Below are positions 14,595 through 64,000 of a DNA stretch of 64,000 bases, one piece after another. The notes below the pieces were generated by a model, which ran no database searches, had not been told where the DNA came from, and saw only the letters and a program-made list of their open reading frames with translations. A program made the position numbers and the translations under genes. Location: the IMG/VR virus record IMGVR_UViG_3300036940_000207, positions 5,749 to 69,748 of that record; one strand, written 5' to 3'. Every line of letters begins with the position of its first letter. Position 1 is the first letter of the stretch. This DNA is from a virus (lineage: Duplodnaviria; Caudoviricetes).

Positions 14595-15053
14595 ATGTCT
14601 TACATGCATAGTAAGGAAAATAAGGATACTACCAGATATTATCCTAAAAATAAAGAGAAATGTGATAAACAATATTATATCACACGTTCTTCATGAGAGT
14701 ATAAACTATTACAATGATGTGATATCAATTCTAATGTTTTGAAATGATCATCTGAACCAATAGGCATCCCTTATCAACATCCTATAAAAATGAGGGATGC
14801 CAGATACTATCCAGATGTATTGATTAAATGTAAAACTAAAAGTGGTAATGTTAAAGTATATCTCATAGAAGTAAAACCTTACAAAGAATGTAAACCACCT
14901 ATCAAATCAAAGGGCAAATCGAAGAAGACTATGCTTTATGAAGCTAAAACATGAGAAGTTAATAAAGCAAAATGAAAAGCTGCTCAAAGATATTGTAAAT
15001 TGAAGGGTTGAACATTTAAAATTATTACTGAGAAAGAACTATTTGGAAAATAA
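14595..15053 (+). CDS. gp4: Head completion nuclease (T4 gp4-like), code 4
   Basis: RSSWE, QWCD, WSSE, YYPD, IEVKP, NKAKW, GWTF; all six Trp are TGA. Confidence 0.9.
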
Positions 15054-15059
15054 ATTGAT

Positions 15060-15254
15060 TTAATTCTTCCTTATTGAAATTAAACAATTTTTATGACCAA
15101 AATGATCAGAACATTTATATCTTGTATATCTATCAGGTTTATATTCTCTTTCCTCTATTTGATGATAAATTTCATCACAATACTTTCCACAAATTTCACA
15201 TTTTCCAAAATATTCTGATGAATATTTTTTCCTAATCAATTTATATCTATACAT
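15060..15254 (-). CDS. Small Cys-containing hypothetical protein
   Basis: CEICGKYC motif, RBS present. Confidence 0.55.
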   Translation of the reverse strand: MYRYKLIRKKYSSEYFGKCEICGKYCDEIYHQIEEREYKPDRYTRYKCSDHFGHKNCLISIRKN

Positions 15255-15266
15255 AATATCCTCTTT

Positions 15267-15608
15267 CTATATTAACTTATAATCTTTACATATAGAATCT
15301 ATAATTTTATCCTGATCAGGTCCAACACCAATACATGTATAAGTTTTGTTACTAAATTCAGTTAATCCCAAATCTTGTACTAAAAAATTTGGAATATTGT
15401 TTTGATTACATAAATCTTTGATTTTAAATAATTCTTGTTCATCTCTACATCCAACAACAATCTTCTTATAGTTATCTTCTAACCATTTAGTAATTTTATC
15501 TGAACCGAAATGATTATATAATATCATAGTAGATGCGTGAGCAACTTGAGCCGCAACTTTACCCTTCCTCATATTTAAATCAGTTCTAACTATAATTACT
15601 TGTTTCAT
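15267..15608 (-). CDS. pth2: Peptidyl-tRNA hydrolase, Pth2 family
   Basis: KQVIIVRTDLNMRKGKVAAQVAHAS, QDLGLTE, CIGVGP; TGA-free. Confidence 0.92.
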   Translation of the reverse strand: MKQVIIVRTDLNMRKGKVAAQVAHASTMILYNHFGSDKITKWLEDNYKKIVVGCRDEQELFKIKDLCNQNNIPNFLVQDLGLTEFSNKTYTCIGVGPDQDKIIDSICKDYKLI

Positions 15609-15786
15609 TATACCCCTCATTTAATTTATCTATTTCTTCTTTTAATTCAGCAAATAAACAATAATTATCACATATAGGTTCATCATACTTAGTTGTTTCT
15701 TCAACACAATTATTATATATGAAATTAGCAGCAACTCTCATTAAATAAACAAATCTTGGTTCATTCTTTCCTCGTACAACTTCCAT
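15586..15786 (-). CDS. Hypothetical early protein
   Basis: ATG 15786 just after the trpS stop. Confidence 0.55.
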   Translation of the reverse strand: MEVVRGKNEPRFVYLMRVAANFIYNNCVEETTKYDEPICDNYCLFAELKEEIDKLNEGYNETSNYS

Positions 15787-15787
15787 A

Positions 15788-16756
15788 TTATATCCCCATA
15801 CTATGTTTGATACCATCCATTATATTTTCTTTAATATATTTCCTAATATTATTTCTTGAAAAATTGATACATTCTAACTCTAATTCATGTTCTTGTCCTT
15901 CTAGTTCTTTATATCGTTCTCTTGCTTCTCCTATATCTCTATTAACTAAATCAAATGTTCTTTCCTTTACATACTTCCAACTTAATCCATTATTCATATC
16001 TACCTTTAAATCAAATACTTCTTGATTTATACTAAATAATTCAAATAATTGAGTAATTGGAGATTCATTAAATTCTTTGGGAACTCCATCACCTTTATCA
16101 TTTGTTTTAATTGAGAATATATGTTTTCTCAATTTTTTCTCAGTACAGAATAATGGAATAATATTGTTATAACTCTTACTCATTTTCCTACCATCATAGC
16201 CTGGAATACTATGATGAGAAATTATTGGTTCAGGTACAGATAATAGATTAGATTTACGTTCATAATTAAATTTATTAACTATATCATTTGCCATTTCTAT
16301 ATGTTGAACCTGATCTGGACCTATTGTTACATACTTAGTATTGAATGAAACCAAATCTGCTGTCATTAATACAGGATATGTATATAATAATGTATTAACT
16401 CCTTTATCACTATCTTTACCCTTATGTTCATTATCATCTTTGATTGCTCTATATGCATGTGCTCTATTAAGTAATCCCTTAGATGTATATGCAGATAATA
16501 TAACATCTAATACCATAATTTCAGGAATTTGTGATTGAATCACAATATTATGAATATTAAAAGATTTTAGTATTCTAATAATTTCTTGTCTGTTTTTTAC
16601 AAGAATTTTTTTATCTTGGACAGAGGTAAGAGCGTGAAGATCTGCTATCAAAAATATAGTTTCATCTTTAAAAGGTAATATTGGTTTAATAGTAGATATA
16701 TAATTACCAAGATGTAATACACCTGTTGGTTTTATACCTGTAAGATATTTAAACAT
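15788..16756 (-). CDS. trpS: Tryptophanyl-tRNA synthetase, bacterial type
   Basis: TGIKPTGVLHLGNY (HIGH), YPVLMTAD, GPDQVQHIE, KMSKS; TGA-free. Confidence 0.95.
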   Translation of the reverse strand: MFKYLTGIKPTGVLHLGNYISTIKPILPFKDETIFLIADLHALTSVQDKKILVKNRQEIIRILKSFNIHNIVIQSQIPEIMVLDVILSAYTSKGLLNRAHAYRAIKDDNEHKGKDSDKGVNTLLYTYPVLMTADLVSFNTKYVTIGPDQVQHIEMANDIVNKFNYERKSNLLSVPEPIISHHSIPGYDGRKMSKSYNNIIPLFCTEKKLRKHIFSIKTNDKGDGVPKEFNESPITQLFELFSINQEVFDLKVDMNNGLSWKYVKERTFDLVNRDIGEARERYKELEGQEHELELECINFSRNNIRKYIKENIMDGIKHSMGI

Positions 16757-16967
16757 CTATCATCTCCATCGTTAATCGTAAAACTTGTGATAATTCTTTA
16801 CTAATTTTATCAAAAAATTCTAATTCATCAATGGCATCTTCTAATAACTGAAATTTTAGTTCACGTTTGGCTCCTTGAAGACTGTATCCTAAATTTTCAT
16901 GAAGGTCAACGATATCTTTAGGAGATATAGGTATTAAATTTCCATCTTCATCAAATATATTATTCAT
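16749..16967 (-). CDS. Hypothetical early protein
   Basis: 72 aa ORF in operon. Confidence 0.55.
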   Translation of the reverse strand: MNNIFDEDGNLIPISPKDIVDLHENLGYSLQGAKRELKFQLLEDAIDELEFFDKISKELSQVLRLTMEMIDV

Positions 16968-16970
16968 AAT

Positions 16971-17180
16971 TTAAATTCCTATTCTTGTAAATTTAAAATT
17001 TGGATCTCTTAGTGGACAATTTTTGGGAAAATTATTCGTAATCAATCACTCATTTATTACATTAAATACAGATTCATCTAAACTACACATGAACCTTTCT
17101 TCATATTGTAATAGAAAAGGACAAGATAGACAACCCTTAATTATTACTTCATTCCTTTCTTTATCATAATTATATCTCAT
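16971..17180 (-). CDS. Small Cys-rich protein with one in-frame TGA
   Basis: GCLSCPF...NE(TGA)LITNNFPKNCPL. Confidence 0.55.
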
Positions 17181-17183
17181 ATT

Positions 17184-17399
17184 TTACTCCTGTTTAGGTG
17201 GAAATTTAGAAAATGCCCTTTCTAAATGTTTAATAGGATTAGTAGGTTCACATTCATGTATATGTTCATAAATTTTATATCTTAAAACTGTATAATGTAC
17301 CCACTTACTTATTAAATTAAGTTGTTCATATGATTCACAAGAATCTATTGTTCTGATCAACTTTACATTTGCTATCCACCATTTAGGAAATAAATTCAT
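17184..17399 (-). CDS. Hypothetical early protein
   Basis: AAGGAG RBS; three Trp, all TGG. Confidence 0.6.
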   Translation of the reverse strand: MNLFPKWWIANVKLIRTIDSCESYEQLNLISKWVHYTVLRYKIYEHIHECEPTNPIKHLERAFSKFPPKQE

Positions 17400-17422: not shown

Positions 17423-17451
17423 ACTATAGTATAAATTTTTATAGTTGTCAA
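17423..17451 (-). promoter_or_regulatory. Early promoter of the trpS/pth2 operon
   Basis: TTGACA-N17-TATAGT. Confidence 0.75.
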
Positions 17452-17673: not shown

Positions 17674-17759
17674 ATAGAAGGACAGAGGGTAGCTCCCTTT
17701 GAAAGTGCTACTCCACTTTCTAACTTCTATATAATATAACCTGAGTGGAGGAAGATATG
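17674..17759 (+). promoter_or_regulatory. Structured RNA leader B of endonuclease gene
   Basis: ATAGAAG/CTTCTAT outer stem, same P2 as leader A, CTCCACT complementary to AGTGGAG SD region. Confidence 0.7.
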
Positions 17760-19010
17760 AGTAAAGAATTGTTTGAATTTTATTTTGGTAATGAAAAGAA
17801 TGAGTTAGAAGAATTGAACAAATGAATTGAGAATAACTTATTAGATAAGAATGGTAATTGTAAATCTAAATTAATAAAAAATAAATGACCTAAAAGACAT
17901 AACCAAATAAAAAAATTAACAAAATTTCTTGATGAACATTATGATAATATTAATATTAAACAAAGATTGTGACATATTAGAAATGAAGATTTAACAATAC
18001 AGAGATGTAATAATAGTAAATGTAACAATATAGTAAGATTTTCCCGTAATAACTATAATATTTATTGTTCTAAGTTATGTTCTCATTCAAACAAACCCAG
18101 TGGTAAAAGATTATCAGATGAAGTGGTCAAAGAATCTGTAGAAAATGATGAAGGTTACATTTTATTAAATAGATATTATGAAAATAATTGACATTATATA
18201 ACAGTAAGATGTCCAAATGGACATGAATATACTGTTTTATATAATAATTGAAAGAAAGGTGCTAGATGTGCTGAGTGTAACGGAACAAAGAAACATGATT
18301 TTAATGATATTAAGAATGAATTTAAAAATGAAAATTATGAAATAATATCTGATGAATACAAAGGAACTAATTCTTGATTAGAATATATTTGTCCAAATGG
18401 TAGATATAATAAAGTAACATATAAAATGTGGAAAAAGGGACAAAGATGTGATTGTATAGAATGTATAAAAAACATTGATAACTACAGACACACATATACA
18501 CCATATGAATTATATAAAATAACAAGTGAAAGAGGTTATATATTAAAAGAATGGAAAAGAGTTGGGACGGATAAACATATAGTACTCTACTTAATTTGTT
18601 CTGAGAATCACCATATAAAAATGACATTAGGAAATTTTCTAAAAGGACATGATTGTAAACATTGCGCTTGAATTGATAAAAGAAAATATGAAAATTGTAA
18701 AGACTTGGATTTGTACAAGAAAGTTAATACTAGGTATATGTGTAGAAGTTATAAAAAATATAAAGATATTATAAATCCTTATAATCTTGAAAGAGATAGA
18801 GATAAATATCATGTGGATCATATATATTCTATATCAGATGGATTTTTGAATTCTGTTCCACCATATATTATTTCATCTCCAGTAAATTTACAAATGTTAT
18901 GATGCACAGATAACTCATCAAAGTGTGGAGAATCTTGAATGACAAAAGAAGAACTTTATGAAAGATATTGAAATTTTTACAAGGAAACAATAAATGGCAT
19001 TAACATTTAA
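17757..19010 (+). CDS. Putative homing endonuclease with Zn-finger repeats (417 aa), code 4
   Basis: CPNGH..., GARCAEC repeats; YHVDHIYS...NLQMLW C-terminal nuclease-like domain. Confidence 0.7.
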
Positions 19011-19792: not shown

Positions 19793-20026
19793 ATGATAGA
19801 AAATGGATGAATGGAATGAAAAAATTATGTACTTAATATGTTAGAGAAATTAGAGAACAGAATAGATAACATAGAAAAAGATAATACTGATATAAAGATA
19901 GAAATTACTAGAATTTTAACCAAATCAAAGATTTATGGAGCATTATTTGGATTTATTGGTGCTTCTATAGTTACTCTAATTATTGGTATAATTATAGAAT
20001 TGATAAAATTTGGTTTACTTTTATAA
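19793..20026 (+). CDS. Holin-like protein (coiled coil plus C-terminal TM), code 4
   Basis: MIENGWMEWKNYVLN (two TGA); hydrophobic C-terminus. Confidence 0.55.
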
Positions 20027-20048
20027 ATATGACAAAAGAGGAAGGTTT

Positions 20049-21083
20049 ATGTTTAATATGGTTGATAGTTTTGCTGATAGAATAACAAATTGAATTACTC
20101 ATAAAAATATTCAACAAATAAGAAAGTATGAGAATATTAAAGAAAGTAACAAAATAAAAGAAGATTTAAAAAAATTAAAAAATCTTACTCTTAAATTAAA
20201 TGAACAAGAAAAGGAAATTCTTGATTTAAAAGAAATGTATCATATGTTGTTTAACTCTTTATGAAATGGTGTTGTTATATTAAGAAAGTGAGGTGATAAA
20301 TACATAATTAAGGATATTAATAAATCCGCTGAAAGAGTGCCATATATAAGCAAAGAATATATTAATGATGATGTAAAACAAGTATTTCCTGAAAGTAAAG
20401 ATTTTTGTAAATTATTTGAAAAAATTGATAAGGTTGTGAATACAGGTAGTAAAGAAAGATTTACATTAAAATGTAATTTTAAAGAAAATATACATTACTG
20501 ATTTGAATCCTTTATATATAGTTTAAATTCAAATGATATAGTAATCATCTTTGAGGATTATACAAAGTATAAGAAACAAGAAATTGTTAATGAAAGAAAA
20601 AATAGACTACTCAATTGTTCATTAGAAGTAAGTAAATTATTACTGAAAAAATGTACATATAATGATATTAGAAATATTTTGAAGCAGTTAAGTGAATCTA
20701 CTGATACTGAAAGAGTATTTTTGTTTAAAAATATTAATGATGCAGTAGGTGAATTATATTCAGAATATAATAAAAGTGAACAAAGTTGAGAAATGGTTAA
20801 TTTTGAAGATGTTCCTAACGTTAAAGAATATTTAAGTAGTGGTCATTATATATGTGATTCAACTGTCCCGCCTAATTCTAAAGATTTACAATTTTGTGAA
20901 AAACATGGAATTGAATCTTTCTGTATAGTTCCAGTATTTAAAGAAGGAGAATGATGAGGGTTTTTAGGATTTGAAGAAAAAAACTATAAAAAGAATTGAA
21001 CCTTTGATGATGTTATTATATTACAAACAATATCTGATATGTTGGGTGTTGTATTAGAGAGGTGTATTGATGATAATATATAG
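20049..21083 (+). CDS. PAS-GAF sensory-domain protein with no output domain (344 aa), code 4
   Basis: FNSLWNGVVIL...DINKSAE (PAS); RVFLF...IVPVFKEGEWWGFLGFEE...WTFDDVIILQ (GAF). Confidence 0.75.
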
Positions 21084-23452: not shown

Positions 23453-23509
23453 ATCACACTTTAAAATATTAAGAATGGGAAGAGTTTCTTCCCATTCTGG
23501 TTACATAGT

Positions 23510-25314: not shown

Positions 25315-26850
25315 ATGGTATGATACAATCCAAGAGATTGATTAAATGAATCAATTAAAGCATTCAAATCAAAATCTGATTATTTAACAGATAAACAACA
25401 AGCAACAGTATCTGGTGAAGGATATGAATCTTTTGATATAACTGGATTCGGTTCTACTGGATTATCTAGTTTTAACATGTTTTATAATCAATACATTAAT
25501 AAAACATATAAGAATGAAGTTGCTAAGATTTATCATTATAGAAATATGGTTAATAATCCTGAAATTTCAGATGTTGTTGAAGATGCTGTTAATGAATCAT
25601 TACAAGAAGATACAGAAGGATATATAATTAATTTTAAAGTTAGTGATGAATCAATATCTAATAAAGAATCATTGATGAAAAATATTAATAATGAATTCTA
25701 TAATTTCTTCTATAACAAATTAAATATTGAAGAATCAGCATGAAATATATTTTATGATTATTTTGTTGATGGAAGAGTATATTTAGAAAATATTATTAAC
25801 GTTAATAGACCCAAAGAAGGTATTATTGGATGGAAACGATTACCTTCTGAAACAATGGATAGAATGTATGATGAATTTGGAAGAATTGAAGCATTTCTCC
25901 AATATTTAAGCAGAGATCCGAAAAAACCTAAAGATCTAGAAGATGCTGAAAGAGATGATAAAATTATTGTATTCTACCCTGAACAGATAACCTTTATTCC
26001 TTATCAATATGGTCAAAATAGAAATATAATATATGGATTCTTAGAAAAATGTAAGATTCCTTATAATCAGTTGAAACTTTTAGAAACTGCTATGGTGATA
26101 TATAGAATTGTAAGAGCACCAGAAAGATTTGTATTCAAAATTGATACAGGTGCTATGCCTAGAGATAAGGCAATGAAGTATGTCGAGAAAGTTAAGCAGA
26201 AAATGAACAAAAAACAGACATTTGATCCTAACACTGGTACATTACAGAACAGTTCAAGTGTGCTCAGTCTCCTAGATAATTATTTTTTGCCCCAAAGCGA
26301 TAACCGTGGTTCAGATATATCAACAGTTGGTGGATCAAGTAAAGGATTTGAATCATTGGATGATATATTTTATTTTCAGAAGAAATTATATAGAGCACTT
26401 AAATATCCTATGAGTAGAGTAGAAAATAAATTTGAGAATAGAACAGGTGATAATTTATTTCATGGTAATGCAATGGGGGAGATAACCAGAGATGAGATTA
26501 AATGATCCAAATTCTTAGAAAGACAACAGAAAAAAATTGCTGATAATTTGAAAGAGTTATTCCTATTACATTTAAAATTTAAAAATTTAAAAGATACTTA
26601 TGGATTAACCAAAGATAATTTTCAGATTCACTTTAATGATCCATCTAATTATAAGAGCCAAATGGATCAGATGTTATTAGAGACAAGAATCAATAATTAC
26701 ATGCATTTATCAAATGAGGAAGGATTCAGTAAGTTCTTCTTAATGAAACATTATCTTAATTGAGATGAAGAGACTATTAAAGAAAATGCTGAAGGAATAA
26801 AGAAAGATAAAGAATTAGGTCTTGTATCAAAAGATGGTATGGGATTCTAA
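25315..26850 (+). CDS. gp20: Portal protein (T4 gp20-like, 511 aa), code 4
   Basis: YFVDGR, LETAMVIYRIVRAPER.FKIDTG, ITRDEIKW; five TGA. Confidence 0.95.
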
Positions 26851-38270: not shown

Positions 38271-39806
38271 ATGCCAGTAGGATACAGTAATGCAATAAAA
38301 AAACCAAATCAAGAATCAGAATATACCCCTGAAATGGTCAAAGAAATTAAAAAATGTATGGATGATATTATACATTTTACCAAATATGTTAAAATTGTTG
38401 ATCCAGACAGGGGAAAAATAATACTGTATGATAATTTAAGAGATTATCAAATAGAATTTTTACAACAATTAAAAGATAATAGAAAGGTTATTGGACTATG
38501 AGCTAGACAAAGTTCTAAAACTACTTGCATAGCTGTTTTTTATCTTTGATATTCACTATTTAATAGTGATATATCTTTAGGATTAGTAAGTAATAAAGAA
38601 TCTAGTGCTAAAGATATACTAAAAAGAATAAAATCATCATATGAAGAATTACCTAATTGATTGAAATGTGGTGTTATACAATACAATATGAAATCTATTT
38701 TGTTTGAAAATAACACTGAAATTTTAGTCAGTGCTACATCACCTGATGCTTTTCGAGGCCGTACTTTGCGAGTTTGTACAGTAGATGAGGCGGCGTTTGT
38801 AAAACCCAAATCAATATTATCAGATTTTTGGTCTGCTAATTATCCAGCTTTATCTGCTTCATATCAAAGTAAAATTTTTATTATTTCAACTCCAAACGGC
38901 ATCGGAGATCTGTTCCATTCCTTATGACAAGGTGCTGTAAATGGAAATAATGGTTTTATTCCTTCAAGAGTTCAGTGGTGACAAGTTCCTGGTAGAGATG
39001 AAGAATGAAAAAAAGAACAACAAAAAGTATTGAGTAAAGTAGAATGAGATAGAGAATTTGAATGTGCATTTCTTGGATCTACTAACACAGTAATAGATCC
39101 TAACATATTAGAAAATTTATTATCACAAACCAAAGACCCTATACAATATGATATAAATAATAAAATCAGAATATGAGAAAAACCTGATAAAAACAGTTTG
39201 TATGTAATTGGGTCAGATATAGCTAAGGGCACAGGAGAACATTACTCTACGTGTCAAGTATTAAAAATTAAATCTACTGATCCATTTAAAGCAGAACAAG
39301 TATCAGTTTTTCAAGATAATTATACAGATGTATATACTTTTTCAAATATCATATATAGATTAGCACTTTATTATAATAATGCTTATGTAGTTGTTGAAAA
39401 TAACATTGGTGATACAGTTATTTCACAATTATGATGAGAATTTGAGTATAGTAATTTAGTTAATGAAGGTAATAAGAAAACACAATTAGGAGTGAGAGCA
39501 ACTACCAAAACAAAACCTAAAGCAGTTCTTACAATGAAAAAGTTAATAGAAGATGGTGATTTGATACTATATGATAAACACACAGTTAATGAATTAACAA
39601 GTTTTATTGATCATGGAAATAATAAATTTGCAGGTAAAGATTTAACAGATGATTTGGTATCAGCTCTATACTGAGCTTGTTATATAGTAGATTTTGATAT
39701 TCTAGAAGAAGGCGAATTTAAAATCAATAACGAGATGGAAGATGAAGCTTGGGGAATATTAAGTGATATAGAAGAAGTAGAAGATACTTCTTGATTATTC
39801 AATTAA
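38271..39806 (+). CDS. gp17: Terminase large subunit (T4 gp17-like, 511 aa), code 4
   Basis: WARQSSKTT, VDEAAFV, IISTPNG, VPGRD, REFEC, DIAKG. Confidence 0.95.
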
Positions 39807-41330: not shown

Positions 41331-44300
41331 ATGTATTTTCCCGTTATTGAAGATTATATTAGTGGATATGATAGTAACGATGAAGTTTCTATATCCATAC
41401 CTAATAATGTTGCAGCAAATGAACTTTTGCTGATTTATTTTGGTTTTGATGATTCTAGGTCAATTGTTTCATTTCCATCTGGCTGAACTACAATACACCC
41501 CGTGTGGACTGATACTAATAATAGTTTTGCAATTATTATTGGAAAAAAGGCTGATGGAACTGAGGGTGGAACAAGTGTTAATTTTGGGATGACAGCAACA
41601 ACCATTTGTTCATATGTATGCCTAAGAATAAGTGATTGAGGAGGAGATTGAGGAGGAGATTTATCAAGTTATATTGATGTATCAACCTCAGTTTCAGATA
41701 ATATAAGTAGATCACAACCAAATCCACCATCTGTTGCAGCAGGTTGGGGAAGTGATTATAATTTATTTTTAACTTTTTGTACGATTTATAATGAAGATGT
41801 TACAGCACCTCCTACTAATTATACTACTATTGATTTTATAAACAATAATAGTAGAAGATCAGGAGTAGCATACAGAGAGCTTACAAAAGACAATGATGAT
41901 CCAGATACATTTACAGCAGACCATGATGAATATTGGGTTGCTGCGACAGTTGTTATTGCTCCTCTTTCCGCACCAAAAGAACCTACTAATCCCTCACCTT
42001 CAGATGAAGCAACAGGTATATCCGTAGATCCAACTTTACAAGTTGATGTTTCTGATCGAGACGGAGACTTGATGGATGTTTCTTTTTACAATGCTGATGA
42101 TGATTCACTTATTGGAACAGATACTGATGTTGTAAGTGGTGGAACAGCAAGTGTAACATGGAATGATTTAAGTTATAATACAACATACTCTTGGTACACT
42201 ATAGCTGATGATGGATCAGCTATTACACAAAGTAGTACCTGAAGTTTTACAACACTAATATTAATACTCACAAATGAAGCTACCAACATCCAATCTTACT
42301 CCACCCAACTTAATGGAACTCTTGGAAGTTTAGAAGGTAACAGTGAACTGGATGTTTATTTTGAGTGGGGAACGGACATTAATTATGGTAATACTACCTC
42401 TACTCAAACTTTGTCTTCCACAGGGGATTTTAGTGATACTATTTCCAACCTTTCTTCTGGAACAGAATATCATTACCGATCCGTAACTACAGATGGAACT
42501 GATACTTGGTATAGTTATGATGTTACTTTTAAAACTTTATCTATATTAGAAGATTATGATAAAGTCAAATCACTTAGTGTAGCTAGTGTCTCTGGTACTC
42601 CTACTATTAGCAGGGCTGTATGCCTAAAGATTAAGTCTGGTGATGATAGCACGACTGGCACAGGTGATATTATTCTAGATTGGACAAATATTTCCAGTGA
42701 AGCAGACATTGCTTTTTTTGATGAGAACAATAATCTGCTAGATTATTATATTGAATCATTTTCATCTGGTGAAACTTATTTACAAGATTCAGAAAGTTTT
42801 GAATCAGATTTTGGTGATTGGACAAATGATCCAAATAATGTTTCAGATTGAGTAAGAAATTCTGGTAGTACACCCTCTTCTGAAACTGGTCCTTCATCTG
42901 CATCTGATGGTAGTTATTACATTTATATTGAGACTACTGATGGGGATTCATTTAATGCAGGTGATACTGATATTATAGAATATGATATTGGAAGTCCTGA
43001 ATATGGTTATGTAGATTTTTATTATCATCAATATGGAGTTGATCAGGGAACATTATATTTAGAGGGATGAAATGGATCAACATGGACTGAAATATGGAGT
43101 TCATCTGGAGATCAAGGAGATCAATGGAATCATGCTACTACTCCTACAACAAATTTTACAGGTTATTCTAGATTAAGGTTTAGAAATGTTGCTGCTGGTG
43201 ATTTTCACGGTGATGTAGCACTTGATCTTATCAAAGTTTATATAAATCCTGTTGGATGTACTACCTGAGTTTATCGGGATTGGGTACAGGATGATAGTAC
43301 ACAAATTCAGGTGGCTTATGGCAATGGACCAATTGACCAAAGTGTAAGTGCAAGTACAGTATTTGATAAGGAAACTTCATTAACTGCTGGATATGTATAC
43401 AATGAATCTAGTGGAAATTTACTTGATGTAACGAGCAATAATAATGATGGAAATGTAGTTGGTGCTACACAGGATCAAAATGGATTTGTAGGAAAAGCAT
43501 ACAGTTTTGATGGAATTGATGATTATGTGGATACAGGTATTTCTGGATTTGAGGATGAAAATGTTTCTGTTTTCATTTCTATCACAAATAGTGTTTTGTC
43601 TGAAAATAATACTCTATTTGGTTTCTATGATCAACAAACAACATTAAATCACTTCTATATATGGATTAAAGCTGCTTATAGTCAAACTGCTGTTGGAGTA
43701 GGAGATAATTTCGTTAATTATGATGAACTCAATGATGAAACAGAGTACAATGTTGTTTTGGTCGTTGATGGCACAACTGCTAAGTATTATGTAAATGGTA
43801 GTGAAGTTGGTTCATTTAGTTTCAATTGAGGTGATACTACTAATGGGAGGTTATATTTAGGAGCAAGGAATGATGTTGCTATAGATGGTTCAATGAGTGC
43901 TGTATCCTTTTTTGAAGGTAAACAGTCTCATGCACGAATATATAGAGGGACAGTAATTAGTTCTTCAGACATTTCAGCTCTTCATAGTGCTACCAAATCT
44001 TCTCCTGACTTTTTCAGTCAGCAGGCAGGAGAAGATACAAATAATGTACCAAATGCACCTACTAATCCCTCACCTTCAGATGAAGCAACAGGTATATCCG
44101 TAGATCCAACTTTACAAGTTGATGTCTTCGATTCAGACGGAGACTTGATGGATGTTTCTTTTTATAATGCTGCTAATGATAGTTTAATAGGAACAGATAG
44201 TGAAGTAGCAAGTGCTGGAACAGCAAGTGTAACATGGAATGATTTGAGTTATGATACAACATACTCTTGGTACACTATAGCTGATGATGGATCAGCTATT

Positions 44301-46919
44301 ACACAAAGTAATACTTGGAGTTTTACAACATTTAATGTTATATCAGTCACTACTCAAGAAACATTTCAAGTATCTGAATCACTACAGAGAAGTAAGACAG
44401 TTTCTGCACAATCTTCTGAATCATTATCCTTAGATGATGTTGATAGTAAAATTACTGATTTTCGTCCATCTTTAACAGATACCGTTAATACAAATGATAA
44501 TATTTTACTAAAAGCATTACTTTTAACATTTTTACAGGATAATATAACATTATCTGAAGAAACATTAAATACTACTATATTTAACTTATTATCTAAAGAT
44601 TCATTTAATATATCAGAAGAGGCGTCAAATACTACTATATTTAACTTATTATCTAAAGATGTATTAAGTACATCTGAAGAATCATCAAATACTACTATAT
44701 TTAATCCTAATACTTCTGATAGTATAACATTATCAGATATAGTATATACAATCGTTAATTATATAGTTAGTTCTTCAGAAAACAATATATTTAATGATTC
44801 AATATTAAGAACAGTTTCATATACATCTTTAGTTTCTGATAATATCACATTATCAGCTTTATTAAATGTATTTTCAATTTTAAATTCTATCTCTAGTGAT
44901 AATCTTTTAGTAAATGAAAATACACAAAATGAAGTGATTCTAAATTTATTATGTTCTGACTCTGTAACTTTAAATGATATACTAAATTTAACTACTATAT
45001 TTAACTTATTATCAACAGATTCATTTAATATATCAGAAGAGACATCAAATACTACTATATTTAATCCTAATACTTCTGATACAGTTACATTGTCTGATGT
45101 ATTAAGTATAATTGGTATATTTAATAAGTTAGTGGATGATTCTACATTACTAAATGATATCTCATCAAATACTACTATATTTAATCCTAATACTTCTGAT
45201 ACAGTTACATTGTCTGATGTATTAAGTATAGTAGGTGAGTTTAACAAAGAATCAAGTGATTCATTTAATATATCAGATATCTCATCAAATATAACTATAT
45301 TCAATCCTAATACTTCTGATACAGTTACATTGTCTGATATATTAAGTATAATTGGTATATTTAATAAAGAATCAAGTGATTTACTGTCTCTTTTAGATAA
45401 TGCAAGTTTATTTTCTGGCATTACATCTTTTGTTTCATCAAATATATCATTTAATACAGTATTAGATGTAATTGGTGAATTTAATAAATTAGTAGATGAT
45501 AGTTTGTCATTTAGTACCATACTAAGTGTGATTAAAGATGTATTGTCCGTATCAACAGACAATTTAATTGTAGATAGTACTACATCTAAAACCACTATAT
45601 TTAATACAGATAATATTGATCAGATTACATTATCAGATATTGTTTCAAAAACTTTAGATCATGTAATAACTACCAAAGATGTCTTAAATTTAGATGAAGT
45701 TATTGATAGAAATATTGTTATAGAGAGATTATTATCCTCTAATATATTATTTTCAGATTTTATTTCTTTAATAACCACTTTAAATTTTACATCACAGGAT
45801 ACATTAATACTTGATGAAAACATAACACAATTATTTGAAAAAATAACAATTTTGGATGATTCATTTAATATATCAGATATCTCATCAAATATAACTATAT
45901 TCAATCCTAATACTTCTGATACAGTTACATTGTCTGATATATTAAGTATAGTAGGTGAGTTTAACAAATTAGTAGATGATAGTTTATCTTTATCAGATAT
46001 AGTAAATGTTATCAAAATTTTTAATGGATATGTTCAAGATGAAATAAGTATAAACACAATCATTTCTGTTATAGAACATTTACTTTCATTAACAACTGAC
46101 AATGTTAATTTAATTGATACAGCAACTAATGTAATTGATTTAATAAAAAATGTGAAAGAATTTCTTAATTTTGGTGATTCATCTTTTGACACTTGAACTT
46201 TTAATGTTACTGGATCAGATAATATAACTACATCTGATATAATAATCACATTATCAATTTTAAATTCGGTGTCTTCTGATAATATAACAATAGAAGATTT
46301 AAGTTCAGTTTTAAAAAATATTAATCAGTTACTAAGTGATGAAAATTTATTTTCAGATTCTAGTAGTAGATTAGCAGATTACTATAAATTATGCTCAGAT
46401 GTAAATATTTTTTCTGACTTAGTTCTATTAAGATTGATATTAAGATTGAAAAATGAGGAAAGACTAGAACTAACAGATAATGTTACTTTAGGATTAATAC
46501 TCAATCTGTTAAGTACAGAAAATATTACATTCTTAGAACTTTGTGCAGCTTCTTCAATATTAATAAGAAGCGTTTCAAGTGATTTAGAATTAAATGATTC
46601 AAATAATATAAATATTGAATATGTGGTTAGTGCAAGTGATGATACTCAATTCTCAACAGTACTAGAGGTAATATCAACACTTTATTCAAAAGTATCTGAA
46701 AACACACACTTTTCAGATATTACCTCTATTGAGATACTTAGATTACCACATGGTAAAATTAAAGTTATATTTAAAGTAGGTACTAATAGAGTAGTATTTT
46801 CTATAAATAAACCAGAAATGAATTATAAGTTTAAGAATCCACACATGGAATCTAAACTAAAGAAACCAGAAGTAAATTTTAATTTAAAGAAAGGAGATCA
46901 AAAATGAAAGATACAATAA
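41331..46919 (+). CDS. Giant mosaic fibre/adhesin (about 1862 aa): duplicated Ig/FnIII-like domain, DUF2341-like with MAM insert, LamG-like, long S-x-x-x-x-D repeat stalk; code 4
   Basis: All track ORFs from 42411 to 46907 are in one frame joined by TGA codons. Confidence 0.8.
41981..42254 (+). repeat. 274-nt intragenic duplication, copy 1 (copy 2 at 44057-44330)
   Basis: Near-identical DNA; TGA in copy 1 aligns with TGG in copy 2. Confidence 0.9.
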
Positions 46920-49723: not shown

Positions 49724-51499
49724 ATGAGTATATATTCAAGTCCTTTAATAGACATTATTGAAACTGACAAGTCTTCATATGTCTCTGGTTTTGCAGCTAC
49801 AGTAGCAAATATTGTAATAAGAAATACATGAAAAGGTAAAGAAATGGAAAGGCAATTGATAACTCAAGAAAGTGAGTTAATTGATTGAGCAGGAATACCA
49901 AGAGATAAAATATATGATGAGAATGGAAACGCAACAAGTATTTCTGATAACTATCAAGATATGTTCTCTGCAATTGGTTATCTTAAACATGGACAAAATC
50001 TATATTGTGTAAGAACTATGCCAGCATCTGCTACATTCGCAGGTGGGTTCTTTGATGATGCGGAAACATGAAATGAATTTGCGGGAGACGGAGCTTTAAC
50101 CTTAAAAACAAAATCATATTCAAATGGTGATATTTCTGATCCAGATGAATTTTCTGAAGAAGCACCCTCTTTAATGGGAACTGATTCTGTTTGAATCATT
50201 GCCAAAGATAGAGGTTATTATGGTAATAACATTAGAGTAGCTATTGTAGATAAAACTACTCAAACTGAAATTTTATCAGGTGGAAAAACTGATTGAGAAG
50301 ATGGAGAAATTTATAATATTGTAAATAGAATAGATTCTCCGATTAAAAATGAAGAAGATTTTCTGTTACTAGTTCAAAACAAACCAGACCAAAGTGATGC
50401 ATGAGTTTTAGCAGAAATTTGAAACGTGTCTTTAAATGAAAATGCTAAAGATGATCAAGGAACAACTAAATTTGTTGAAAAATTAGTAAATAGGAGTTCT
50501 AGACTTATAAGAATAGCAGTAAATAGTGATTATCATAATTCAACAGTACCTAATGATTGAGTAACAGAGGATTTTAATGATTTGGGTGGTGGAAGAGATC
50601 ATGATGGTGATGAAATTAATGATAATATAGTTTTAGAAGCTTATGAAATATCAGAAGATCCAGAATCTGTTGATATTAATTTATTTATTGATTCAAATAA
50701 ATCAACCACTGTTAAAAAAAGAATAGTTGAAATTGCTGAATCAAGAATGGATAGTATGTTAATTGCTGATGTTCTACGTGAACATGTTGTCAATAATAAA
50801 GGTAATGAAACAACTGATATTACACGATGAAGAAGAGGGTACACAACTCCTAACTTCAATATAAGTTCAAGTTATGCAGCTTTATATGCAAATTGGTTAG
50901 AAGTTTATGATAGATACAATAGTAAATACAGATGAGTACCAGCTTCTGGTTATGTAGCAGGCATTTATGCTAATAATGACAGTCTTACAGATCCTTGGTT
51001 TGCACCAGCAGGTTTGGAAAGAGCTACCCTGAATAATATTAGAAGGTTAGCTTGAAATCCTAATCAAGCTAAAAGAGATACATTATATATTGCAGGTATT
51101 AACCCAATAGTTTCTTTTGCAGGAAAGGGGAAAGTTATTTGAGGACAAAAAACAATGTTTTCTGAATCTTCAGCATTTAATAGAGTAAATATTAGAAGAT
51201 TATTTATGGTATTAGAAGAAAGTATCAAAGATTCAGCAATGAGATTTGTATTTAAACCAAATGATAGAGATACACGAAATCAACTAGTATCTATGATTGA
51301 TCCTTTTCTTGCAGATGTTAAAGCTAGAAGAGGAGTAGTTGATTATTTAATTGTATGTAATACTACAAATAATACTCCTGAAAGAGTAGATAGAAGTGAA
51401 TTATGGTGTGATATTTATGTTCAACCAACTAAAGCTGCTGAATTTATTAGACTTAACTTCATAGCAACAAGATCAGGTATGGAATTTACAGAAATATAA
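49724..51499 (+). CDS. gp18: Tail sheath protein (T4 gp18-like, 591 aa), code 4
   Basis: PWFAPAG, GINPIV, WGQKT, FNRVNIRRLF, IYVQPTKAAEFIRLNF. Confidence 0.95.
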
Positions 51500-53143: not shown

Positions 53144-56100
53144 ATGGCCACTGAAAGAAGAGAATATATAAAAACAATAAAAAATTCATTAGAAAAATTT
53201 AATGAAGAGAGTCAATTAATATTTGAGCAACTTCAAAATTTGAAATCTGATGATATTACTCTTCAGATCTTAATAACAGAAATACAAAAGATCAGAGAAA
53301 ATACTGTCTCTGAAAAACACTATAACAAATTAACAAATATTCTTAATCAAATACAAGAAGGTGAAATTAAAGAATCAGATTTGAATAAAAGTGTTGATGA
53401 AATTTCTGAAGGTTTTATGAAGGGAACTAATACATTATTAGAAGGTATTGGTTCAAAAATTGGAGAAATGGCAGAGCAAAATGAATTAATAGTCTCTGGT
53501 ATTAATAAAGTAGGTGGATTTTTTGGTGAAATATTCTCCCCCTTTCAAGAACTTTTTAACCTTATAACTGGAACATTTTCTATACTTCAAGGTGTCTTTG
53601 GTTATATGACCAAGATTCCTACTTTATTAATGGGATTAATGAGTGTTATTAGAAAAGACCCAACACCTGACAAATTGGATAAATTAATTGATCTTGAAGA
53701 ATCTAAGATAAAGAAAGAAGATAGAGAAATCAAAGATGATAGTAGTATTTGAAGTGAATTATTACTAATAGCTGGACAAATCACAGGTGGTATAATGGCA
53801 GGAGTAAGTGGATTCGTTACAGCTGTTCAGAAAGACATAGTGAAAATGTATAAACCATTTATGAATGTATTTAAAAATGGTATATTAGATCCAGTTCGGA
53901 ATTGATTCAAAAAAGAAAACTGAATCACAAATATGTTAAACAGAATAAAAAATATTAAAGGAATAACTAGAATAGAAGGATTAATTAGTAGATTTAGTGG
54001 AATTGTTGACAGAATAAGAAATATGTTTACGTCTGTGATAGAAAGATTAGGTAAAGTGAGATCATTAGTAGATGATTTGATAAAACAATCAGGAAAATTT
54101 GGAAAAATTATTGGTGGAATTTCTAAAGCACTAGGAAGATTAGTTTGACCATTGTTGATTGCTTATGAAGTTATAAGAGGAATGATAAAAGGAGAAACAA
54201 TAAGAGATAAAATATTAGAGGCAAGTGCTGGTATTTTATCTATAGCAACACAAATACCGGAATGAATTATTAATGGATTGTTATGAGCATTTGGTTCTGA
54301 ATTTAGAGTAGATTTTGGTAGAGAAGCAATAATTGAAGCAATAAATGATATAAGTGATTGGTTATATAAGAATGTAACTGAACCAATAACAAATTTCCTG
54401 AAAAATTTTGATTTAAAAGAATCATTCAATAAACTTGTTAATAAAATAGAAATTACTATTAGTGATTCATTTGGATCAATACTAAAAAAGTATAATAATC
54501 TGAAAAATATGTTAATGGGATTTTGAAATTCTCTAATTAAAATGAATTTTCTTGATTCTGATTTGTTTAGTACAATTACAAATTGAATGGAATGAACCTT
54601 TGATCAAATTAAAAAACCATTCATGTGAGTTAAAGAAAAACTACAAGAAACTGAACAATGATTAATTAATCATACATTGTTTGATAAACAAACAATAGAT
54701 TCATTAAAACAATCAATGTCTAGTATGTTTAACTGGATAATTGTACCTTTCAAGAATGTACTAACTAATTTGAATGATGTACAAAACTGATTAATAACTA
54801 CTGTATTTGCAGATCCAACACAAACATGAGAAAGTATTAAGAGTGTAATGAGTAATGTGTTTGATTGGATAACTATACCTTTCAAATCAGTATTAGAAAA
54901 ATTACAAAATTTTTGAAATTGGTTAACTACAACAGTATTTGCAGATCCAACACAAGCATGAAAAGATATTAAGAGTGTAATGTCTGATATGTTTAACTGG
55001 ATAACTGCACCCTTTACAAATGTACTAACTAATTTGAATACTGTACGGAATTGGTTAACTACAACAGTATTTACAGATCCAACACAAGCATGAGAAAATA
55101 TTAAGAGTGTAATGAGTAATGTATTTGATTGGATAACTATACCTTTTAAATCAGTATTAGGAAAATTACAAAATTTTTGAAATTGATTAACTACAACAGT
55201 ATTTGCAGATCCAACACAAGCATGAGAAAATATTAAGAGTGTAATGTCTGATGTGTTTAACTGGATAGCTGTACCTTTCAAGAATGTACTAACTAATTTG
55301 AATAATGTACAAAACTGATTAATAACTACTGTGTTTGTAGATCCAACACAAACATGAGAAAATATCAAGAGTGTAATGAGTAATGTGTTTAACTGGATAA
55401 CTACACCCTTTACAAATGTATTAACTAATTTGAATACTGTACGGAATTGATTAACTACAACAGTATTTACAGATCCATCACAAACATGGGAAGGGATTAA
55501 AAGTACAATGAGTAATGTATTTGATTGGATAACTATACCCTTTACATGAGTTAAGGATAAATTAAAAATATTTGAGAATTGATTAATTAATCATACATTG
55601 TTTGATAAACAAACAATAGATTCATTAAAACAATCAATGTCTGATGTGTTTGGTCAAGTAACTGCACCTTTTATATTTGTTAAAAATTTATTATCTGATA
55701 TGTGGAATTGATTAACAGCTACTACATTCAGTGATCCATCACAAGCATGAGAAGATATTAAGAATAAATTATATGGTATATTTGATTATTTAACAGAATT
55801 ATTTCAACCAATTAAATTTGCAGCATTAACATTTTATGGTTTATTAACAGGTGATTTTGGTACAATGTCTACCAATGTAAAGAAAATGTTGAATTCTTTA
55901 CAGAATGTAATGTCTAATATATTCAATAATATCAAAAACTTTTTGATGAACAATACACCTATTGGTCCATTAGTCAGAGGTTTTAATAATTTATATAATT
56001 TTTTGACAGAGGATAACAAAGAAGAAACAATATTAGAATCATTAATTAATGATTTAAAAGAATTACCTGGACAAATAACAAATTGATTTTATTCAATTAT

Positions 56101-59279: not shown

Positions 59280-60143
59280 ATGATAAAAAATCCATTAAGC
59301 TCATTACAACCAGAATCAAATAAACTATTTGGTATATATAGGGGAGTTGTTGAAGATAACAGATCAGATCCTAGAAAAGCTGGAAGAATAAAGGTTAGGG
59401 TATTTGGTGTTCACACCAAAAAGAAAACTAAAAATAGTGAGGGAACAGAAGGAATTCCTACAGAAGAATTACCATGATGTGAGCCTGCCCTACCTATCTT
59501 TGAAGGTGGTGTATCAGGATTTGGTAGGTTTTCACATCCAGTAGAAGGCTCTCATGTTTTTGTGTTTTTTGAAGCGGGGAATCCTATGGAACCAAGACAT
59601 TTCGCTTCTGCACCAGGAATTCCAGAATCTGCACCTAGATATAATGAAAATGAAGGATTCAGTAATCCTAATATTCCTAATGTTGGTGATGATAGTGATG
59701 ATGTTGATATTACTGATGATATTATTGTAACATTGGATAGATATGAAACTAGTGATCAAGGTACTAAAGGTAATATTAGTATTAATGATTCATATTTCTG
59801 TAAATCTTTAGAATTACCTTGAAGAGATAATAACAATAACATATCTTGTATTCCTACAGGTACTTATGAAGTTTTCTTTAGACAATATCATTATAAACTT
59901 AAATCAGTCCCAGGAAGAACAGGTATATTAATACATTCTGGTAATTATGCAGGAGATAGTAGTGAGGGATATTTAACAAATTCACAAGGATGCATAATGT
60001 TTGGTCAAGAGTTTGGAACATTAAATAATCAACTAGCAGTATTAAATTCATCAAATACTGTTAATAAATTTGTATCAAAGTTAGAAAAAAAATCTTTTAA
60101 ATTTATAGTTACAAATAGTACAAGTACAGATATGTCTGTGTAA
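59280..60143 (+). CDS. gp5 N-terminal OB-fold fused to a DUF5675-like domain, code 4
   Basis: YRGVVEDNRSDP..GRIKVRV, LPW; then LELPWRDN, SCIPTGTY, ILIHSGN, SQGCI. Confidence 0.8.
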
Positions 60144-60153
60144 AGGATAAAAT

Positions 60154-61461
60154 ATGAGTTTATATAATGAACTTAATTTTTCTGGAGCAACTGTTTTTGA
60201 TTGAGACTTCTATCATAAAGAATATTTAAATTCACCTACTATTAGTTCTTCAGAAGGTGATAAACGTTTAATTGCATTTAATACGAGAGATAAACAATTA
60301 AAAATACTTCTTCCACCAAAGAAGTATTTAGATAGTTCCGGTATAAGTATTTCTTTTACTGCTTCTAGTGGTATATGTAAGTATAAAGCACAAATTGATA
60401 ATGTTCCTTCAATAAATACTCCAAATTATTCTGTGAATAATTTGCCTTTTAAACAAATTCAAGAATTGTCTTATGCAAAATGTATAGAATTTGATAGTCA
60501 AAGTAGTTCATGGAAAATAGCAAATTTAAAACCTTCTGAACCACATTGGTTGTGTATTGATATAGATCAAGGAACAGTAGGACGAATTAAAACTGATGTT
60601 TCTTTTAGATTATTAGAAGAAACAGCAAAGGAATACTTATTAGGTAGAAATGATCCAAGTGATTATGATGATTCAAGTGATTCAAGCGTTTATGAACCTC
60701 CAAAAATATGAAAATATGCTCCTGGTGAACCAGATTGGCATAGATTAGCAAGACATGAAAAAATAGAAGATACACCTATTGGGTACAGAAGATCTCATAA
60801 AGTTACTGATATAGATGTATCTTGATATTTTTTTGAATGAGATGAACCTGATCCTTACTATAATGCATTATATCCAGAAAATAAAGTTATGGGTACACAT
60901 AATGGGTTATTATATGAGATAGATGATACTCCAGATAATAGAAGATTTCATCGTTGACATCCATCAAATACATTTGAGGAAATATCTGAAGAGGGACATT
61001 TAAATAATAGAAATCATGGAGATAGATTCATATTAGTAGATGAAAATTTCTATAAATTAATAGAGAAAAATTTTTATGAAACAATAAGAAAATCATGTTT
61101 CAGACTTATAAAGAATAATAATTGATCTCACACAATAGGAAATGAATTAAATTGAGTTCAAAACAGTAAAATTACTTATATTGATTCTAATAGGAAAGAA
61201 GAAATTGGTGCAAATAATGATATCATTATTAATAAAGGTTCTTATGTAAAAGCATCAGAAACATATAATGTTCAATCAAAAGAAATAAATATGGATGCTG
61301 ACGTTATAAACCTTAATTGTGGAACATCATTATCTCCATTGGTTCCATCAAAAGAAGAGACATCATCTCAAGGGCCAGAAAGTCCAACAGGATCTGCTGT
61401 AGATTCAGAAAGTAGAGAAAGTGGTAATGTAGTTACACAACCCTGATGAACAACTATTTAA
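60154..61461 (+). CDS. Protein containing the gp5 C-terminal spike region, code 4
   Basis: YPENKV, EIDDTP..RFH.WHPS.TFEEI. Confidence 0.7.
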
Positions 61462-61488
61462 ATAAAACTAAGTAAAAATGGTGATACT

Positions 61489-61809
61489 ATGAAAGATATA
61501 GAAATTGTAGATATTTCAGAAACTAAAGAAGTTATTGTTAATGATAATTTTATTGTTGTATATGATAAAGAAAATAAAGAAGTGAGTGTCCATAGTAAAA
61601 TCAAATTAAATATTGATTTTTGCACTGATTTGTCATTAAATATAACTGGTGCATTAGATTTGAATGTAACTGATAACATAAATATTAGAACAAATAAAGA
61701 ATGTTTTATAGATTCTAAAATATTATGATTAAATTCTAAAAAAGAAAATTATTATGATGAAAATTTTAACAAACAAATTCTAGGAGTAAAAAATGCCAGG
61801 TGTAGTTAG
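61489..61809 (+). CDS. Small baseplate-spike-associated protein, code 4
   Basis: LNITGALDLNV repeats; between gp5 and PAAR. Confidence 0.5.
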
Positions 61810-62110
61810 AATAGATGATAATTGTTCAGGACATGGATGTTGACCTCCACGCCCATCCATAACAGGATCTCCTGACGTATTTGTTAATAATAAACAAGTA
61901 GAAAGATATAATGATGTTTTAGAAGAACATTGTTGTCGTAGAATTATAGAAATAGATGGTGAGATTCATATTCGAACATATTGTCATGATGGTTTACATC
62001 TTGGCATTAGAGATGTATTTGTAAATGAACTACCTATACAAGTAGGACAAGACCCTATTAGTTGTGGATCTGTTTGTGATGAATGTTCTGATAATGTTTT
62101 TGCGGAATAA
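61793..62110 (+). CDS. PAAR spike-tip protein (T4 gp5.4-like), code 4
   Basis: GHGCWPP, GSPDVFVN, CGS...SDNVF. Confidence 0.85.
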
Positions 62111-62125
62111 AAAAAGGAGTAAAGA

Positions 62126-64000
62126 ATGGCACAACAAGTTTTTGATGTACATAGTTCAAAATTAACATATGCTACACTTAAAAAAATGTTAGAAATTGTA
62201 GATGATTATTTAAGTATTAAGACTAACTTAACATATTATTTTCCAGGAATTCTGGTCAATAATGATGAATGAAGGAAATTGAAGAAAATTATTAAAACTT
62301 TCTTAGATCATAATATTAATTGGGGTGGTATTTCTCCTAATACTAGTAGTACCACACATGATTATTCCAATTTAAAACAAACAATTCATTTAAATAAAGA
62401 TGATGTAGCTCATCTTTATAATAGATTAATAGGTGAAGTTTCCTTTGCAGATGAAACAATTGTTGATTATTTATCAAGTGCTACCTGAACTAACATTATT
62501 AATAGAGTTATAAATATGATTACTTATGAATCATTATATACTTTACATAGACAAATTTTTAATGGTATTAGTAATAATGATTCTGAATATACAGAAAAGA
62601 CATCTGGACAATTATCATTATATGATAATTGTGAGATGCCATTACCAATTAATAAATATACTCCTGATAATGCTAATTATAATGCCTTTATACATCTTCT
62701 AGGTTCTGATAATTATTATTCTTATCTGCCTGTATATGATCTTGATTGAGTATCAAGAAATGTATTTAAAAGATTAATATATAAAACAAATAAAGTTACT
62801 ATAGATTCTTCTCCATATACACATAATACTCCTATAGGTGCAATATTATGAGCAAGAAAATCTGATGGTACATTTTTAACTACTATAACATATGATGATG
62901 AAGATACAGTCAATATTGATGGAGTAGAAAGTGGAACAGAATTAAGAATATTAGAATTGTATAGTGAAGGTGAAGAGGAAGAAGTGGAAAGACCATTAAA
63001 ACCAAGTATTTTACATCCAGAAAATGAAGATACTGTTTTTAATAAATTTGATATTTTAACAACTTCCTTGAAGATATCAGGTGGATTATTTGATTACCAT
63101 TCATGAACAACTTGGCAATTATCAGATTCTTCTGATTTTTCAAACATATTATGAGAATCATATAGAAATAGAGAGAGTAAGACTTCTATTTCGTTATCTA
63201 TAAGTCCTTCAGGATATATATCTTGTGAAACAGAAAGTTCATCTGGTCAATTAGCAACCAATGATACTATATACTGTAGAGCTAAACATAAGGGTGGTAT
63301 ATATGGTGAATCAAATTTTAGTGCTCCAATTCATTTTTATACTCCTTCATCATGAACCTGTGAAAGAGGTTTAGTAGATTATGGTGGTATAATAGTTGGT
63401 GAAATTAATGATTATTGTTTAGTCATGGGAAAGTTTGATTCTGAACCAACTACTACAAATAATTTCTATATACATTCATCTGAATCAGAACAATTATCGG
63501 AAACAATATCAAGTTCAGGTGATATGTCATATAGAGAAGATCAAGATATATATTATGCTAATGTAACTGGTAGTAATACTGATATGAATGATTGATTAGA
63601 AATCAAACCCCAACCAGAAAGCAATTATGATATGTTTGTGGATTCAGAATCTGAAATGTTAAGTTTAGAAGTAAGTGGTGGTAACATTGCTATTAGAACT
63701 GATGAATATAAATGTTATGTTAATTTAGTAGGAAGTAATGAATCTATGAATGATTGAATGGAATTAGATACTCCTGCAAAAATTTGATGATTAGCTAAAC
63801 AATATTGTTTGAATCTAGAATATCAATCGTATAATGATTGATATTTACCATTAGCATCTGAATTGAATATGATGCAGAATAATATGTTAGAATTAAATTC
63901 TCTAGATGATACAGGAGAATTTAGAACAGAAAAATATTGATCTTCTAGTGTTGATGTTATGGATGAAAAATATTATGCATGAGTAGAAGATTTCAGTGAT
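62126..64000 (+). CDS. Large virion protein with DUF1566/Lcl-like lectin domain, truncated by window end, code 4
   Basis: Open to 64000; AKQYCLNL....DWYLP..ELN...YWSSS...AW. Confidence 0.7.

Follow-up and report, generated by a model that had tools for sequence, protein, structure and literature searches.

Phages that read TGA as tryptophan and have relatives using the standard genetic code have been described (Borges et al., bioRxiv 10.1101/2021.08.26.457843). In two Jade phages a module written in the standard code, encoding a tryptophanyl-tRNA synthetase (TrpRS), release factor 1 (RF1) and a suppressor tRNA, precedes the lysis genes (bioRxiv 10.1101/2021.08.26.457843), and the AP1 TrpRS:tRNA-UCA pair experimentally inserts Trp at UGA (PMC12636597). 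We analyzed a stretch of 64,000 nucleotides (hereafter the window) comprising bases 5749-69748 of IMGVR_UViG_3300036940_000207, a single-contig virus record of 69,748 nt with a G+C content of 28%, in which TGA stands for Trp (genetic code 4) and a TGA-free TrpRS gene lies beside the gene for the gp4-type head closure protein. The kind of phage is already known, namely TGA-to-Trp phages with a TrpRS; the present case differs in its lineage and in the placement of the TrpRS.

The phage resembles the Jade phages in its reading of TGA as Trp, in having standard-code relatives, in a TrpRS gene kept in the standard code, in virion genes that are the most recoded and in genes that all end in stops readable by RF1. 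Unlike those gut phages, it is a T4-type myovirus, the cultured phages with the closest homologues of its genes are marine, no tRNA(UCA) was found beside its TrpRS or elsewhere on the fragment, nor RF1 among about 70 ORFs scanned, TGA also occurs in many non-structural genes, and the TrpRS gene adjoins gp4 and a PTH2-type peptidyl-tRNA hydrolase gene (the latter in this phage only) rather than standing upstream of a lysis cassette. Compared by description, AP1 and HF2 (PMC12636597) also have a phage TrpRS tied to UGA-to-Trp recoding, but theirs is paired with a tRNA-Trp(UCA) and no partner tRNA was found here. Mycoplasma and Spiroplasma likewise read TGA as Trp, have low G+C and prefer TGA over TGG; in them code 4 is a cellular trait accompanied by loss of release factor 2 (RF2), whereas here it is derived within a phage clade and a TGA-free subset of genes was kept. 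With Kyanoviridae and Straboviridae (S-SM2, P-RSM4, Melnitz, T4/T2) the phage shares gp4, gp20, gp21, a gp22-like protein, gp23, gp17, gp18, gp19 and gp5, yet they use the standard code and are only 29-51% identical to it, and here gp5 is split and carries DUF5675 in place of lysozyme. A partial search of the literature returned no description of a T4-type code-4 clade. Published surveys of recoded phages are mainly concerned with gut or animal-associated ones, and the present case places code 4 in a T4-type lineage whose genes have affinity to those of marine phages.

TGA behaves as a sense codon throughout the record. Greedy non-overlapping coverage of the 69,748 nt by open reading frames (ORFs) rose from 0.605 under table 11 to 0.913 with TGA read as sense, as compared with 0.68 for TAG and 0.79 for TAA treated in the same way. 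The re-calling of genes under tables 4 and 11 that the initial annotation had proposed thus gave a sharp rise for TGA only, and the statement that structural genes become single ORFs ending in TAA or TAG was borne out, as the 101 ORFs chosen terminate in TAA (80) or TAG (21) and none in TGA. These ORFs contain 276 in-frame TGA and 129 TGG codons; a few single TGA codons located 2-8 codons before an ORF end are indistinguishable from stops. TGA is evenly distributed along genes (22-31 codons per decile), and the base following it is distributed as after other codons, with no bias. Selenocysteine and occasional read-through are ruled out by the 276 evenly spread sites. ORFs of at least 150 aa in the window number 20 under table 11 and 56 under table 4, and gene callers using table 11 therefore fragment this genome.

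The residue was assigned with a Codetta-like test in which all ORFs were translated with X for every TGA and searched by tblastn against 33 standard-code loci, recognized as such by coverage about equal under tables 11 and 4, and scored by a site-weighted BLOSUM62 likelihood. The 51 TGA sites that could be aligned, from 12 genes, faced 531 cells, among which were 172 W, 81 Y, 62 F and 5 G. Weighted log-likelihoods were -121.6 for W, -152.6 for Y, -162.4 for F and -217.5 for G, W thus exceeding Y by 31 log units and G by 96. The same procedure assigned the control codons correctly (GGT plus GGA to Gly, TAT to Tyr, TTT to Phe and TGG to Trp), and the substitution profile of TGA was aromatic (W, Y, F), like that of TGG. 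A test of this type had been suggested in the initial annotation, and it places Trp first with Gly far behind; at the level of sequence comparison the reading of TGA as Gly (code 25) is refuted.

Individual proteins gave a concordant picture. An alignment of gp4 with its cultured counterparts from S-SM2, P-RSM4, Campylobacter phage F372, Melnitz and T2 and with one standard-code metagenomic relative placed two of the six TGA codons at invariant W and three at columns with a majority of W; the sixth falls in a variable column, and the assertion that all six are conserved is therefore nearly correct. Three TGA codons of the portal gene align with columns in which 103, 117 and 101 of 119 homologues have W, T4 gp20 having S, F and M at the same columns; the proposed EIKW tryptophan is codon 397, W in 117 of the 119, though F in T4 gp20. 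TGA codons 93, 237, 246 and 468 of the terminase face W in standard-code relatives, as does codon 404 of the sheath in 24 of 25 relatives. The WWGF motif postulated for the GAF-domain protein is present as EWWGF through two consecutive TGA codons, and the ORF of the putative PAAR protein reads GHGCW as claimed, with TGA at codon 17, the Pfam match to PAAR itself being weak. Duplicated sequence within the window is also informative: the long intragenic duplication has TGA in one copy and TGG in the other at the same position and frame, as annotated, although its length is 283 and not 274 nt, and two further TGG codons are common to both copies. Exchange of TGA and TGG was likewise found, as stated, in the seven repeats of the tape measure gene, with five TGA to two TGG at the first Trp position and six to one at the second; the third position is TGG in all. 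Because coding density, internal duplicates and the alignment test agree, TGA is concluded to specify Trp in this phage.

Profile searches assign the record to an uncultured T4-type myovirus (Caudoviricetes) by the presence of the core morphogenesis set, namely gp20, gp23, gp17, gp18, gp19, gp4 and gp5 (Table 1), and with TGA read through the matches of the portal, gp4, large terminase (TerL), sheath, tube and tape measure reach full length. Cultured relatives are distant, the portal being 29% identical to those of Melnitz (a Methylophilales phage) and of T4-like phages of Yersinia and Acinetobacter, and the nearest cultured gp4 being that of Synechococcus phage S-SM2, with 51% identity. The record has no terminal repeat and its last ORF continues past the end. 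It probably represents about 35-40% of a genome of about 170-200 kb, since CheckV completeness is 33% and 14% for the records of two relatives, of 67.9 and 24.8 kb, respectively.

Recoding is extensive but uneven. Of the 252 Trp codons that plus-strand genes contain from position 17745 onward, 188 (75%) are TGA, as are 88 of the 153 (58%) elsewhere, and 33 of the 56 genes outside the structural block carry TGA, including genes in the 5,748 nt of the record upstream of the window, where usage is the same. Among the TGA-bearing non-structural genes are a DHH-like gene (8 TGA) and, upstream of the window, thymidylate-synthase-like and MttB-like genes. The initial annotation had described recoding throughout the late genes; the reading as Trp and the enrichment in those genes stand, whereas a restriction of TGA to late genes is rejected, recoding being genome-wide. 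Heterogeneity between genes in the choice of TGA or TGG is pronounced (chi-square 163 as compared with a permutation mean of 88, a value reached in 0 of 5000 permutations), and 12 genes with at least two Trp codons lack TGA where 2.5 were expected. The TGA-free genes include those for SAM lyase, cREC_REC, DUF932 (0 TGA, 6 TGG), an HD hydrolase and an HNH endonuclease, as well as genes of the TrpRS block. TGA-rich and TGA-free genes could not be told apart by the T4 late-promoter motif TATAAATA. In the part of the record that precedes the window (L046:603-5188), the TGA-free genes for SAM lyase, cREC_REC and DUF932 are interleaved with the thymidylate-synthase-like gene and the MttB-like gene (trimethylamine methyltransferase family), both TGA-bearing. 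A large gene at 41331-46919, encoding a 1,862-aa protein with a MAM and an Ig-like domain, contains many repeats of 60 or 120 nt and has a local G+C content of 0.33; TGA is the minority Trp codon in it (10 TGA, 17 TGG), unlike in neighbouring genes. Homing-endonuclease-like genes of HNH or REase type were found at 11911-12999, 17745-19010 and 36907-38262, the second and third with 10 and 9 TGA codons, respectively, and the first with no TGA and three internal repeats of about 195 nt.

The TrpRS gene lies on the minus strand in a block poor in TGA. Its product matched PF00579 (6e-37, 127.9 bits, cut-off 21.1) and NF009207 (1e-86, residues 4-322 on positions 6-331 of 332), and specificity for Trp over Tyr is indicated by E-values of 1e-86 to 3e-46 for TrpRS models and 7.5e-8 for TyrRS. 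The NCBIfam equivalog cut-offs of 479 and 176.75 bits are not reached (scores of 290.8 and 158.3, respectively), the phage enzyme thus being diverged. The catalytic motifs are kept, namely the HIGH-type HLGN (H15, G17, N18) and K191-M-S-K-S195, and are invariant in 27 clade members. We regard this TrpRS as a candidate code-change enzyme. The PTH2 gene downstream was not found beside TrpRS in the relatives whose DNA was fetched and is therefore not counted as part of a conserved module. The 167-nt gap following the TrpRS gene (15621-15787) holds a small TGA-free ORF, and its fold z-score is 0.01.

In a quick tree, about 29 TrpRS sequences from phage-like contigs form a monophyletic clade that excludes both cellular TrpRS and the TrpRS found in other phages, which use the standard code; the clade has 99% support in the Shimodaira-Hasegawa-like approximate likelihood-ratio test (SH-aLRT), and its stem measures 1.25 substitutions per site. 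All clade members for which DNA was fetched lie on TGA-recoded contigs (L024/L042, L025, L030-L032, L033, L047, L048, L178, L179). Their TrpRS genes are free of TGA in all nine recoded relatives, amounting with the window to 0 TGA and 18 TGG codons, in loci where TGA makes up 32-84% of Trp codons and the neighbouring gp4 has 3-6 of them. Under independence, the naive probability product for this pattern is about 1e-8, which overstates the case because the lineages are related; this kinship is mitigated by the divergence of the TrpRS genes to 46-80% identity and by the free exchange of TGA and TGG in other genes. A metagenome scan with the TrpRS alignment retrieved mostly cellular TrpRS at 35-43% identity and did not enlarge the clade. 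In one relative with the standard code (L043), the syntenic site next to gp4 lacks a TrpRS gene, and two sister contigs (L002, L003), with portals 51-53% identical, have no TGA in the portal gene and use the standard code. Because phages this close keep the standard code, recoding is derived within the phage clade, and this lineage, with sisters at about 50% portal identity, is a clean system in which to study the manner and the causes of a code change in phages. In some recoded relatives (L179:4603-6777; P0004, P0007, P0011) the T4 portal domain is interrupted by an intein (PF14890).

A TrpRS free of TGA across the clade suggests that the synthetase is translated before UGA becomes readable as Trp, which would imply a standard-code host. 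Recoding driven by the phage in such a host, with a standard-code TrpRS made early, is the explanation that we consider probable. The host, itself on the standard code, would with its own RNA polymerase transcribe a standard-code early set, consisting of the TrpRS block, preceded by a sigma-70-like promoter, and of other TGA-free genes, such as that for SAM lyase. The phage TrpRS would charge a UGA-reading tRNA-Trp, probably encoded in the two thirds of the genome that are unsequenced, and full translation would then be possible for the genes with TGA, to which most of the genome and almost every virion gene belong; more speculatively, PTH2 may recycle peptidyl-tRNA from ribosomes failing at UGA. 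Overall this would correspond to the 'code-change' scheme proposed for the Jade phages, and a TGA-free TrpRS throughout a clade could serve as a simple, testable sign separating phage-driven recoding from mirroring of the host. Several observations weigh against this explanation. The TrpRS of the window has a single Trp codon, so that the signal of avoidance comes from relatives that are not fully independent; TrpRS also occurs in standard-code phages (L049-L056, L063); the promoter, which ends 24 nt upstream of the first gene of the block, is a consensus match only and a weak link; and there is no clean early/late split, TGA-free and TGA-bearing genes being interleaved on the same strand. Furthermore, no tRNA was detected in the 69.7-kb record by ARAGORN, with or without introns, or in the 64-kb window by Rfam at E-values up to 1. 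No RF1 was found in a scan of about 70 ORFs of this fragment, which took in part of the small ones. Two recoded relatives were no more revealing with respect to a UCA anticodon, G001 (about 68 kb, all but one base of the 67.9-kb record) having only Gly, Val and Cys tRNAs, of which the 80-nt tRNA-Cys is an ordinary GCA tRNA, and G002 (24.8 kb) having 13 tRNAs that include Trp-CCA and no UCA. ARAGORN with relaxed thresholds returned only noise from the record (148-223 matches), matches to a T-loop motif all lay inside coding sequence, no tRNA(UCA) was found beside TrpRS, where the 167-nt gap has no excess structure, and none was found in the 179 fetched loci. Because all these records are fragments, the absence of a tRNA(UCA) is weak evidence.

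The main rival, a phage mirroring the native code 4 of its host (a Mollicute or an undescribed walled bacterium with a host tRNA-Trp(UCA) and no RF2) and carrying TrpRS as an ordinary auxiliary gene, is possible but rather unlikely. It would readily accommodate the lack of a suppressor tRNA and of RF1 in about 70 kb here and in two recoded relatives that together cover about 93 kb, TGA in about 70% of genes, nucleotide-metabolism genes included, the low G+C and the unbiased base after TGA, as expected if nothing competes with RF2. Yet it gives no reason for a TGA-free TrpRS amid TGA-rich neighbours in nine recoded relatives or for the excess of TGA-free genes, and close sister phages use the standard code. 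A wall-less Mollicute host, against which the initial annotation had already argued from the contractile tail and the spike, seems further disfavored by the DUF5675 gp5-type hub, by the absence of any Mollicute among the 120 nearest TrpRS homologues, by the marine origin of the nearest cultured gp4 and portal homologues and by the clade-wide TGA-free TrpRS; a search of genome contigs with the portal profile, made for host identification, gave no match, and an exact 41-mer taken from the contig of GCA_003566095.1 did not occur in them either. DUF5675 occupies the place of the lysozyme of T4 gp5, and the second hub gene matches the C-terminal beta-helix of gp5; one preprint on candidate lysins finds that DUF5675 resembles C82 peptidases in structure. 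Folded as a single sequence, this part of the hub had a predicted local distance difference test (pLDDT) score of 30, and the model was not relied on. The variant with an undescribed, walled and free-living host bacterium that natively uses code 4 appears improbable, and we give a similar weight to the possibility that the T4-type clade reads UGA in a standard-code host without any tRNA(UCA), using the diverged TrpRS and a tRNA-Trp(CCA). For the phage of the window, reading of UGA by a phage tRNA-Trp(CCA) charged by this TrpRS, with a C-A mispair at the third position that a Hirsh-type D-arm or a modification would favor, is quite improbable. This route draws on the tRNA-Trp(CCA) among the 13 tRNAs of G002 (L088:8662-8735, minus strand, in IMGVR_UViG_3300035698_005274, the record of L047), which has a weak D-stem with U11:A24 and G73, and on the absence of a UCA tRNA from all DNA fetched for the clade; in E. 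coli, UGA is read by the Hirsh suppressor form of tRNA-Trp (G24A). U11:A24 is natural in some bacteria, however, and hence not diagnostic, the records are all fragments, near-cognate decoding hardly seems efficient enough for genes that contain 12-30 TGA codons, and the tRNA of a relative says nothing direct about the window. If true, reading by a CCA tRNA would represent a second way, so far undescribed, in which a phage drives recoding. Finally, TGA could stand for Gly, as in phages of Gracilibacteria and Absconditabacteria, or for another residue. Code-25 phages do exist (Borges et al., bioRxiv 10.1101/2021.08.26.457843), and the recoded relative L024 lies in a metagenome-assembled genome of unknown taxon; set against the 5 Gly and 172 Trp cells, an aromatic profile matching that of TGG, the interchange of TGA and TGG in paralogous repeats and a TrpRS encoded by the phage, this is extremely improbable. 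Like the AP1 pair before it, the diverged TrpRS could interest builders of orthogonal translation systems.

Table 1 Features of the window discussed in the text (positions in the 64,000-nt window; TGA read as sense).
Feature	Position	Strand	Details
gp4-type head closure	14595..15053	+	phrog_218, 1e-45; all six Trp codons TGA
TGA-poor block	15060..17399	-	six listed ORFs, 1 TGA and 5 TGG; holds TrpRS and PTH2
PTH2-type peptidyl-tRNA hydrolase	15267..15620	-	117 aa, no TGA; PF01981, 1.5e-33, full length; downstream of TrpRS
Tryptophanyl-tRNA synthetase (candidate code-change enzyme)	15788..16756	-	322 aa; 0 TGA, 1 TGG
Sigma-70-like site	17423..17451	-	TTGACA, 17 nt, TATAGT; 11/12; best of the region
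GAF-domain protein	20010..21083	+	8 TGA, including the TGA-TGA pair in EWWGF
T4-type portal	25315..26850	+	PF07230, 1e-92, profile positions 3-432/433; 5 TGA, 1 TGG
Prohead protease	27190-27813		profile search
Scaffold (gp22-like)	28481-29215		profile search
Major capsid protein	29202-30458		Gp23 label (PF07068) taken from the record of an identical relative
Large terminase	38271..39806	+	12 TGA, 3 TGG
Duplication, copy 1	41972..42254	+	283 nt, intragenic; TGA at 42240
Duplication, copy 2	44048..44330	+	91% identical to copy 1; TGG at 44316
Tail sheath	49724..51499	+	12 TGA, 3 TGG
Tube	51560-52105		profile search
Tape measure	53144-56842		profile search
Tape-measure repeats	54783..55794	+	seven 132-nt units
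Split gp5-type hub	59280..61461	+	OB and DUF5675 (59280-60143); beta-helix part (60154-61461)
PAAR-like spike tip	61793..62110	+	PF05488, E 4.6e-4, 20.8 bits, below cut-off of 27

Other elements of the window were also noted. A complete diversity-generating retroelement spans 22054-24821, with a variable repeat (23302-23425) that forms the C-terminus of a tail protein (phrog_5302), a template repeat (23510-23633) and, after the latter, a reverse transcriptase gene (23745-24821) with six in-frame TGA codons; all 24 mismatches between variable and template repeat fall at template adenines. A 74-nt direct repeat (982-1055 and 1629-1702), 80% identical between copies and unusually rich in G+C for this genome, contains TTGACAAGGGCAG. 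Four minus-strand genes begin with a common sequence encoding MRLYN.LNE, their starts lying at 4931-4989, 7825-7883, 8799-8857 and 9430-9488.

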